From Desulfurococcaceae archaeon (lineage in GTDB: Archaea > Thermoproteota > Thermoprotei_A > Sulfolobales > Desulfurococcaceae): 11,891 nt of DNA. The stretch lies in NCBI GenBank assembly GCA_038888155.1, contig JAWAJB010000031.1:1-11891 (forward strand), read 5' to 3'. The translations under genes and the position numbers were made by a program. Below are positions 4,366-7,366 of the stretch, one piece after another. Position 1 is the first letter of the stretch. Every line of letters begins with the position of its first letter. The notes under the pieces were generated by a model. The model saw only the letters and a list, made by a program, of their open reading frames with translations. It did not search any database and was not told the origin of the DNA.

Positions 4366-4440
4366 GGGCCCGTGGCCTAGAATGGATAGGGCGGCGGCCT
4401 CCTAAGCCGTAAGTCGTGGGTTCGAATCCCACCGGGCCCG
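4366..4440 (+). tRNA. tRNA-Arg (anticodon CCT), intronless, CCA not encoded
   Basis: Acceptor GGGCCCG/CGGGCCC, discriminator G4440, anticodon stem GCGGC/GCCGT with loop CT-CCT-AA (CCT at 4401-4403), T arm GTGGG-TTCGAAT-CCCAC. Confidence 0.97.
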
Positions 4441-4557
4441 CTATCATATCACACAAAATCTCCACTTCTATGGAGGCCTGGTGCATCTCGAAGGAAATGT
4501 AAAACCAAGAACTTTCATAACTTCATTATATGCCAGTCTTAAATAAAAAGAAGGAGT

Positions 4558-5378: not shown

Positions 5379-5451
5379 GGCCGCGGTGAGGTAGCGGTTA
5401 GCCTTCCGGCCTGTGGAGCCGGCTGCCTGGGTTCGAATCCCAGCCGCGGCC
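5379..5451 (+). tRNA. tRNA-His (anticodon GTG) with genome-encoded G-1
   Basis: Acceptor GCCGCGG (5380-5386)/CCGCGGC (5444-5450); G5379 opposite discriminator C5451; anticodon stem CCGGC/GCCGG with GTG at 5413-5415; T arm CTGGG-TTCGAAT-CCCAG. Confidence 0.97.
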
Positions 5452-5538
5452 CTTTTACCTAAAACAGTCGAAGGTGTATGAAAAGCAAAAGGCTTATAGT
5501 TGACATTTAAGTTCTAGGAACGTTTTAAACATATTTAT

Positions 5539-5554
5539 GCAAAATATATATAAA
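5539..5554 (+). promoter_or_regulatory. BRE-TATA promoter of the 16S precursor
   Basis: Purine-rich GCAAAA followed by TATATATAAA. Predicted start near 5575-5577, just before the GC-rich structured leader. Confidence 0.7.
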
Positions 5555-5583
5555 CAGGCGATGATTACAATAATGTGCGAAAC

Positions 5584-5670
5584 TCCACGGCTCGACGGCG
5601 GTACCGCCCTCGAACGTATAGGGGCGTGAAAGCCCATCAGATGTAAGGGCGGCCTCCTAGCCGTGGGACA
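5584..5670 (+). ncRNA. H/ACA-like guide RNA hairpin in the 16S 5' leader; predicted target 16S U6805 (E. coli U1052 equivalent)
   Basis: P1 5584-5592/5659-5667 followed directly by ACA (5668-5670). Pocket strands 5593-5603 and 5653-5658; P2 5604-5610/5646-5652. The pocket pairs with 16S 6799-6804 (6/6) and 6807-6817 (9/11), leaving U6805-G6806 unpaired, with a 15-nt spacing to ACA. Confidence 0.68.
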
Positions 5671-5676
5671 AGATGA

Positions 5677-5704
5677 GGACCTAAGCGTTAGGATGCTTGG
5701 GTCT
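5677..5704 (+). other. Second leader hairpin immediately before the processing stem
   Basis: GGACCTAAGCGT-TAGG-ATGCTTGGGTCT: 12 bp including G-U pairs, with a 4-nt loop. Confidence 0.65.
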
Positions 5705-5705
5705 A

Positions 5706-5760
5706 ACTATGGGTTTTCAGCCCCCACAAATTCCTAGGGATGCGGCGTACTTCTCCAGGC
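5706..5760 (+). other. 5' arm of the 16S pre-rRNA processing stem with BHB motif
   Basis: ACTATGGGTTTTCAGCCC-CCAC-AAA-TTCCTAGGGA...TTCTCCAGGC is complementary to 7307-7353. Central 4-bp helix CCAC/GTGG; bulge AAA at 5728-5730. Confidence 0.93.
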
Positions 5761-5763
5761 TTG

Positions 5764-7287
<1,524 letters not shown>

Positions 7288-7306
7288 ACCGTTAATGTGC
7301 TTCCCT

Positions 7307-7353
7307 GCCTGGAGAACGTCCCTAGGAAGTGGAAAGGGCTGAAAACCCATAGT
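7307..7353 (+). other. 3' arm of the 16S pre-rRNA processing stem with BHB motif
   Basis: GCCTGGAGAA-CG-TCCCTAGGAA-GTGG-AAA-GGGCTGAAAACCCATAGT; bulge AAA at 7333-7335; 18-bp perfect outer helix with 5706-5723. Confidence 0.93.
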
Positions 7354-7366
7354 CTTTATGATTTTT
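7354..7366 (+). terminator. Possible T-rich terminator of the 16S transcript
   Basis: CTTTATGATTTTT directly after the processing stem, followed by AT-rich non-rRNA sequence. Confidence 0.35.

Follow-up and report, generated by a model that had tools for sequence, protein, structure and literature searches.

A predicted box H/ACA guide RNA of Pab19 type in the leader of an archaeal 16S rRNA precursor

Introduction

Guide RNAs that lie within the precursors they act on include the C/D-box guide in the intron of archaeal pre-tRNA-Trp and small nucleolar RNAs in the spacers of eukaryotic pre-ribosomal RNA (pre-rRNA). Archaeal H/ACA guides place about 14-16 nucleotides (nt) between the target position and the ANA box. 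Here we analyse a hairpin at positions 5584-5670 of an 11,891-nt stretch of archaeal DNA (contig JAWAJB010000031.1 of assembly GCA_038888155.1; the whole stretch is called the window), which sits in the leader of a 16S rRNA gene and has the form of a box H/ACA guide RNA for helix 34 of that same 16S.

The closest described system is the Pab19 family of Thermococcales (Pab19, Pfu19, Pho19, Tko-19 and Tba19; Rfam RF02794). The pocket of Pab19 is enlarged, and the RNA also carries a small 5′ stem-loop; its predicted target is 16S U1017, and its small ribonucleoprotein acts on that position of Pyrococcus abyssi 16S in vitro, with a score of ‘+++’ (PMC2377435). Tko-19 of Thermococcus kodakarensis lies immediately upstream of the 16S-tRNA-Ala-23S operon and is likely co-transcribed with it (PMC4247193, 2014). 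In 34 Thermococcales genomes, Tba19 occupies a place in the 5′ external transcribed spacer (5′ ETS) some 200 nt before 16S, and the reason why it belongs to the precursor is, according to the authors, still to be understood; the same preprint describes archaeal rRNA excision by-products that are ligated in several archaea (bioRxiv 10.64898/2026.03.23.713588). At the equivalent site in Sulfolobus islandicus, 16S-U1009 is pseudouridine in vivo and its guide is the atypical H/ACA RNA sR136, confirmed in vitro; no genomic location for sR136 was found in the main text (PMC11077068). Thermococcales thus already provide this family of RNAs, with the same target and the same location in the 16S leader, and pseudouridine at the site is known from Sulfolobus. 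The earlier note on this DNA, made from the sequence alone, knew of no guide located in the 16S leader; Tko-19 and Tba19 are such guides (PMC4247193; bioRxiv 10.64898/2026.03.23.713588).

We consider it likely that the window hairpin forms the 5′ end of the 16S precursor (pre-16S) and is a classic H/ACA guide that modifies helix 34, acting while attached to the precursor, after release, or both. This reading is built on structure, covariation, complementarity to the target, promoter spacing, the guide-protein genes of the genus and, in orthologous systems, activity in vitro and pseudouridine in vivo at the equivalent U. From these we infer that a ribonucleoprotein (RNP) would assemble on the hairpin and that position U6805 of the window would become pseudouridine, in cis or in trans.

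Results

Structure of the hairpin

The hairpin can be divided into the following parts.

5584-5592, + strand: 5′ strand of the H/ACA lower stem (P1), pairing with 5659-5667
5593-5603, + strand: 5′ guide strand of the pocket, CGACGGCGGUA
5604-5610, + strand: 5′ strand of the upper stem (P2), pairing with 5646-5652
5611-5613, + strand: non-bulged strand of a kink-turn (K-turn)-like motif, a C and then G5612 and A5613 (structural parse)
5622-5635, + strand: apical hairpin, GGGC at 5622-5625, loop GUGAAA, GCCC at 5632-5635
5640-5645, + strand: bulged strand of the K-turn-like motif, a GAU bulge, then G5643, U5644 and A5645
5646-5652, + strand: 3′ strand of P2
5653-5658, + strand: 3′ guide strand CCUCCU
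5659-5667, + strand: 3′ strand of P1
5668-5670, + strand: ACA box, directly after the lower stem

The lower stem comprises 9 base pairs (bp), with a basal U5584-G5667 wobble, and the upper stem 7 bp. Both stems appear in the RNAfold structure, whose energy is -43.8 kcal/mol (z = -4.2); none of 200 shuffled sequences folds as well. The basal stem, ACA, pocket and upper stem had all been noted earlier from the letters of the sequence, and each is confirmed at the coordinates given there. The atypical H/ACA-like RNAs of Pyrobaculum and Sulfolobus have neither a lower stem nor an ACA box; the window RNA has both and would therefore be a classic H/ACA RNA. It nonetheless shares with sR136 of S. islandicus the equivalent 16S site and the phylum-level group of the host.

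Complementarity to helix 34

The two strands of the pocket are complementary to a stretch of the downstream 16S.

5764-7287, + strand: archaeal 16S rRNA gene (Rfam RF01959, 1461.8 bits)
6799-6817, + strand: target stretch in helix 34, GAGAGGAGGUGCAUGGCCGUCGCC, with U6805 as the predicted pseudouridine and G6806 unpaired

By script, CCUCCU (5653-5658) forms 6/6 pairs with 16S AGGAGG (6799-6804) and CGACGGCGGUA (5593-5603) forms 9/11 pairs with 6807-6817, the latter duplex running as seven contiguous Watson-Crick pairs, a mismatch, a G-U pair, an A-U pair and a second mismatch. U6805 and G6806 stay unpaired within the context GGAGG-U-G-CAUGGCCGUCG, and the distance from C5653 to A5668 is 15 nt. 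The script agrees with the earlier note on both pairings, on the two free bases and on the spacing to ACA; the note’s estimate of about 1009 for the mature position of U6805 becomes 1042 when 16S is bounded as in Rfam (5764-7287). From the UGCAUGG context and the Escherichia coli numbering, we take U6805 to be the equivalent of E. coli U1052.

The U6805 site ranks first among the 232 U sites of the 16S, with 15 of 17 pairs against 12 for the runner-up, and a score of 15 is attained by 6/2000 shuffled guides and 3/500 shuffled 16S sequences. The match to helix 34 might be fortuitous, and the hairpin might instead serve the leader in some other way, for example in processing or antitermination: both pocket strands are rich in G+C and can partly pair with each other, and 0.3% of shuffled guides do reach 15/17. 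This explanation is taken up again below with the evidence from relatives, which makes it very improbable. Among the loci compared, GAGAGGAGGUGCAUGGCCGUCGCC is identical in 33 of the 37 where the target was found, with 8 more loci giving no match. Three loci of the family labelled f42 have CAUCGCC in the target; alignment by hand indicates that the guide of these loci, GGUGGCGGUG, would match it at 10/10 positions.

Membership in the Pab19 family

In a permissive Rfam scan of 5453-5770, the hairpin aligned to RF02794 (Pab19) over the whole length of the model at 16.8 bits (E = 2.2); the pocket columns are occupied by GACGGCGG and CCUCC, and the alignment closes with ACA. Some 200 nt upstream of the other 16S gene of the same assembly, on contig C4, lies a second match to Pab19, which scores 41.9 bits. 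Like Pab19, Pfu19, Pho19, Tko-19 and Tba19, the window RNA is a single hairpin with the pocket cores GACGGCGG and CCUCC, and with the Pab19 type it shares both the targeted U of helix 34 and the place upstream of 16S inside the leader. It differs in having no small 5′ stem-loop, the 5′ stem columns being unpaired in the Rfam alignment; in its 5′ guide, which is 11 nt long, whereas that of Pab19 is 15 nt and leaves an extra target base unpaired; and in the G-U at the second sheared pair of its K-turn-like motif. Moreover, the window guide is about 95 nt from a 16S that is unlinked to 23S, whereas the Thermococcales guide is about 200 nt away, and the host belongs to a phylum other than that of the Thermococcales hosts. 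On these sequence features we assign the hairpin to the single-hairpin box H/ACA guides of Pab19 type.

Identity of the host and choice of relatives

Comparison with relatives depends on knowing which organism the window comes from. The source assembly, of 2.42 Mb and with 6.4% contamination, contains two different 16S genes, that of the window (contig C31) and that of contig C4, which are 77% identical over the first 337 nt. Over those same 337 nt, the window 16S reaches only 75-81% identity with the relatives that the assembly's nominal placement implies. Its closest counterparts among 400 sampled genomes of the phylum are the 16S genes of G071 and G087, at 99% identity, followed by those of four further genomes of genus g58 (family f27), at 95-98%. 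The window and a contig of G071, a genome of a family other than the nominal one, are 99.56% identical over 4525 nt. These comparisons indicate that the assembly is a mixed bin, in which the window of a g58 organism was binned with another archaeon; for this reason a blastn search with the window leader against 40 nominal relatives gave no match. The nearest named 16S sequences are those of an Aigarchaeota metagenome-assembled genome (92% over 610 nt) and of Ca. Wolframiiraptor gerlachensis (89% over 947 nt), and the window DNA is also present in hot-spring metagenomes. Each of the two 16S genes in the assembly is preceded by its own Pab19-type guide.

Conservation and covariation

The survey of relatives covered the window’s phylum, and Euryarchaeota through papers only. 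A script that looks upstream of 16S for the stem, GGCGG and an ANA box found 46 hairpins in the loci examined, one of them apparently false. When 42 hairpins were aligned with plain MAFFT, their stems were out of register and RNAalifold predicted no structure. A covariance model (R1), made from 8 sequences of two genera of the window’s family, was applied to 57 loci; in 42 of them, including contig C4 at 24.9 bits, it matches a single hairpin ahead of 16S (E<=0.05).

Standard pairs make up 97.1% of the cells in the 42-sequence R1 alignment, and in 18 of the 20 pairs both partners vary. P1 is paired in 99.7% of cells, with both-side changes in 8/9 pairs; P2 in 93.5%, with such changes in 6/7; and the apical helix 3 in 97.4%, with such changes in 4/4. 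The covariation score is 0.707 against 0.197 in shuffles, none of 500 of which reaches 0.707, and partners slid out of register give at most 0.14. Exchanges in the lower stem are visible in the raw sequences too, for example GGC/GCC to GAC/GUC.

The guide strands, the K-turn and the ANA box behave differently from the stems. The GGCGG core of the 5′ guide and the K-turn core AUG(A/U) are at least 90% conserved in alignments A4 and A6, and CUCC of the 3′ guide is at least 90% conserved in A4. The last triplet in A4 (n = 42) is ACA in 28 sequences, AUA in 8, AAA in 4 and another in 2, so that A.A is kept in 40/42. The pocket-to-ANA distance is 14-16 nt in 24 of the 39 rows parsed by script, the larger values coming mostly from mis-parsed rows, and it is kept even where the stem slides in register. 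Conservation in relatives had been proposed as a check on the hairpin, and across many genera the guide strands and the ANA box prove near-invariant while the stems covary.

It is here that a fortuitous match to helix 34 in a leader structure of another kind loses ground. Covariation is confined to the two stems and leaves GGCGG, CUCC, the ANA box and the core of the K-turn unchanged, the pocket keeps its distance from ANA despite the sliding register, and the same element matches Pab19 in Rfam both in the window and, at the higher score, on contig C4. We regard that explanation as strongly disfavoured.

K-turn and guide-RNP proteins

In most relatives a regular K-turn lies about 6 pairs above the pocket, its 5′ strand reading GA and its 3′ strand NNU-GA. 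In the window, G5612 and A5613 face G5643 and U5644, making one sheared G-A pair and a G-U pair 6-7 bp above the pocket, and no regular C-stem follows. The GU variant is common to the window, four same-genus g58 sequences and three sequences of genus g121, and the 5′ K-turn strand is GA in 4/5 same-genus sequences and AA in L038. Three of the 42 rows gave no K-turn parse and several were mis-parsed; these statements are based on the well-parsed rows. Natural K-turns tolerate changes at the second sheared pair.

The proteins of the guide RNP, Cbf5, Nop10, Gar1 and L7Ae, score above curated cut-offs in all three g58 genomes searched (3/3). In the mixed assembly of the window, the guide-protein gene copies found lie on contigs C3 and C4, and Gar1 has no match there. 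In G071 (G071:C8:80177-81147 = L185), G057 and G087, Cbf5 is matched in two pieces, residues 6-70 and residues 71-322, which are separated by about 20 nt and do not share a frame. Such a split would be consistent with the small bulge-helix-bulge intron of crenarchaeal cbf5 mRNAs.

Evidence against a modifying guide, and a non-catalytic alternative

Several points weigh against reading the hairpin as a modifying guide of this family. Two of the 11 positions in the 5′ guide duplex are mismatched, and the unconstrained minimum free energy structure of the free RNA partly shuts the pocket, with 4 pairs formed between guide strand and guide strand. The K-turn is off consensus (G5612-U5644, and AA in one relative), so that the predicted binding of L7Ae may not be assured. 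The covariance-model alignment is fitted to its model and is therefore biased to its structure, and loci L065-L144 were preselected by the CCTCC and ANA pattern, so both features are present in them by construction. The RF02794 score of the window falls far short of the gathering cut-off of 55 bits; the Rfam check proposed in the earlier note was in this respect divided, giving a full-length alignment with a matching pocket, but at a score under the cut-off. Finally, the in vivo state of U1017 in P. abyssi is marked ‘?’ owing to a reverse transcriptase pause (PMC2377435). Against these points stand the Pab19 alignment of the pocket, the covarying stems and the guide proteins in the genus, with which both the H/ACA reading of the earlier note and its helix 34 target agree.

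The H/ACA RNP could also be real but have a mainly non-catalytic task, holding helix 34 open or timing the folding or processing of the 3′ major domain. It would then resemble eukaryotic snR30/U17, which is needed for 18S processing and not for modification; snR30 is described as a non-modifying H/ACA RNA in the abstract of PMC7601244. The fixed place at the 5′ end in many families suggests a role tied to the precursor, for which the Thermococcales preprint leaves the reason not understood, and deletion of sR136 failed, possibly through essentiality or for technical reasons (PMC11077068). We nevertheless think a mainly non-catalytic task improbable. With the U and its neighbour left unpaired at 15 nt from ACA, the pocket has the geometry expected of a guide that modifies; the ortholog is active in vitro (PMC2377435), and the S. 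islandicus U is pseudouridylated in vivo (PMC11077068). The two roles are not mutually exclusive.

Promoter, leader and processing

The hairpin lies between tRNA-His and 16S, and more closely between a promoter-like element and the 16S processing stem, inside the 16S leader, where it had been placed from the start. The elements around it are as follows.

5539-5554, + strand: B-recognition element (BRE)/TATA-like promoter GCAAAATATATATAAA, conserved in the same-genus loci L037, L038, L040 and L041
5677-5704, + strand: conserved leader hairpin of 12 bp between ACA and the processing stem (fold), its motif GAGGACC...GGUCU recurring in other leaders
5706-5765, + strand: 16S processing stem, 5′ strand, bulged by 3 nt at 5728-5730 (co-fold with 7291-7353)
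7291-7353, + strand: 16S processing stem, 3′ strand, bulged by 3 nt at 7333-7335 (co-fold pair list)
7355-7366, + strand: T-rich stretch just past the stem, TTT and then TTTTT at 7362-7366

TATA-like hexamers start 35-39 nt upstream of the window hairpin, and from this position transcription would start at about 5575-5579, so that no other structure would precede the hairpin in the transcript. Some 20 nt further upstream than the main box, at 5521-5531, is another TATA-like box, TTTTAAACATA, which is kept in L037, L038 and L041; the boxes at 5521-5531 and 5539-5554 suggest tandem promoters.

The window shares its layout, which we call arrangement B, with a set of 88 loci in which 73-124 nt separate ANA and the 16S anchor. 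In 68/88 of them the hairpin is preceded by a TATA-like hexamer whose first base lies 28-39 nt away, any other 12-nt window holding one in at most 14/88, and a TATA-like box lies between ANA and 16S in 13/89 loci. Arrangement A comprises 20 loci, mostly from the order of the assembly’s nominal genus, with the hairpin 157-423 nt upstream and, in 15/20, a BRE/TATA box such as AAAGTATTTAAAC between the guide and the 16S leader. In the relatives of that genus (L008-L034) the guide may be separately transcribed or depend on read-through. Nearly all of the leaders compared (L006-L144), whichever their arrangement, have a hairpin of the motif AUG(A/G)GGACC...GGUCU after the guide or after the promoter.

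Arrangement A raises the alternative that the window hairpin, too, belongs to an independent small-RNA gene beside 16S, with its own promoter and end, 16S transcription starting downstream of 5670. The strong BRE/TATA box between hairpin and 16S leader in those 15 loci speaks for it, and from its position separate transcription probably exists in some lineages. For the window itself we find such a gene quite improbable. A search for a 16S promoter downstream of 5670, which had been named as the finding that would undo co-transcription, revealed no A/T-rich or promoter-like box in 5671-5763. The sole T run there (5714-5717) falls within the processing stem and is absent from same-genus loci, the ACA is only 35 nt from the processing stem, and the approximately 230 nt upstream of 16S contain no promoter-like element besides the TATA that precedes the hairpin. 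We infer, from this arrangement of sequence elements, that the hairpin would be co-transcribed with 16S.

The end of the ACA is 93 nt from the start of 16S. The processing stem, also detected by blastn as an inverted match of 5706-5740 with 7319-7353, contains a canonical 3-4-3 bulge-helix-bulge formed by 5728-5730, a 4-bp helix (5724-5727/7329-7332) and 7333-7335. No 23S is present in the window, and the 23S of G071 lies on another contig (C10, L186) than its 16S and has its own TATA box; the 16S therefore looks stand-alone, and 16S and 23S are unlinked in genus g58. The T-rich stretch at 7355-7366 is a likely terminator of this stand-alone 16S unit. The leader of the G071 23S gave no H/ACA match that would represent a second built-in guide.

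Taken as a guide made with its target, the hairpin would work as follows. Transcription would begin about 5-9 nt ahead of the hairpin, from the TATA box at approximately 5547-5554, and extend through the hairpin, the conserved leader helix and the processing stem into 16S. The hairpin would gather L7Ae, Cbf5, Nop10 and Gar1, and its pocket strands, laid on 6799-6804 and 6807-6817, would put U6805 in the Cbf5 active site for conversion to pseudouridine. The splicing endonuclease would then cut the bulge-helix-bulge (5728-5730, 7333-7335), and excision would release the guide on a leader-trailer by-product of about 185 nt, from which it could keep working in trans.

Guides of the pre-tRNA-Trp intron type likewise have guide and target on one transcript and are released by the bulge-helix-bulge endonuclease pathway, as proposed here. 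Precursor-borne guides are mostly C/D, whereas that of the window would be an H/ACA RNA at the extreme 5′ end of pre-16S and non-intronic. Like the precursors of the ligated by-products of 5′ ETS with internal transcribed spacer or trailer, the window has a 3-4-3 bulge-helix-bulge, located at the foot of its 16S stem.

Distribution across Thermoproteota

Named genomes were scanned with the pattern CCTCC-N9-11-ANA placed 72-102 nt before the 16S 5′ end, and at least 119 stretches matched, 80 of which were listed. Genera among the matches listed include Nitrosopumilus, Cenarchaeum, Nitrososphaera, Nitrosotenuis and Wolframiiraptor; other names among them include Bathyarchaeia, Caldarchaeum/Aigarchaeota, Methanomethylicia, Conexivisphaerales and Thermoprotei, and the carriers include Nitrososphaeria. 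R1 alone matches 23 of these 80 listed loci (E<=0.02), and a broader model, R2, matches 69 of the 80 (E<=0.1). The leaders of Nitrosopumilus, Nitrososphaera and Cenarchaeum contain, by eye, a complete hairpin with UGAUGA-type K-turns.

Run on whole genomes of the phylum, R2 matched 80 of 151 (E<=0.01), nearly always once per genome, and in all of the 43 genomes cross-checked by eye (43/43) the match is 72-655 nt upstream of 16S on the same strand. The same run gave no match in families f13 (0/7), f14 (0/22), f18 (0/10), f23 (0/13) and f31 (0/5). In runs of more than 40 genomes stricter filters lose weak matches, and the 71 unmatched genomes are not proof of absence, because loci named Nitrosopumilus, Cenarchaeum and Nitrososphaera carry the hairpin yet score only 29-45 bits with R2.

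Discussion

Searches of the literature, in which subscription journals were poorly covered, gave nothing relevant on leader-borne H/ACA RNAs outside Thermococcales. Within this incomplete coverage, no paper found describes the wide spread in Thermoproteota, the fixed distance from the promoter or the second arrangement, with the promoter after the guide. In the survey made here the leader guide is not an oddity of Thermococcales: it also occurs in Aigarchaeota-like thermophiles, in ammonia oxidisers (Nitrosopumilus, Nitrososphaera, Cenarchaeum), in Bathyarchaeia and in Methanomethylicia. The regularities described here give a simple annotation rule for a non-coding RNA that the current Rfam model misses outside Thermococcales.

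Since helix 34 lines the decoding site, a guide for it bears on translation itself, and the presence of guide and target on the same transcript would provide a one-to-one supply and an early window for modification. As a tentative idea, about which we remain doubtful, the helix 34 guide may have been an ancient module built into the 5′ end of pre-16S before the split of Thermoproteota and Thermococcales, with one guide per 16S acting in cis on the nascent 3′ major domain; where the hairpin was not found, as in f13 and f23, a free-standing guide may have taken over, as sR136 would have in Sulfolobus. If this is true, an ancient cis module couples the modification, and perhaps the folding, of a decoding-site helix to transcription and to bulge-helix-bulge excision. 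The question raised by the 2026 preprint, why the guide sits in the precursor, can now be tested by comparing lineages, because they differ in having the promoter before the guide, the promoter after it, or no such guide found.

Other features of the window and of the assembly

Upstream of the leader, the window contains two tRNA genes.

4366-4441, + strand: tRNA-Arg
5380-5452, + strand: tRNA-His

The second 16S of the assembly, on contig C4 (L001, minus strand, locus positions about 90 to 1), departs from rRNA sequence directly after GGCCGTCGCCAG. The point of departure is a few bases beyond the guide target stretch, and the sequence is A/T-rich from there to the contig end. This break looks like a 16S intron or a misassembly.

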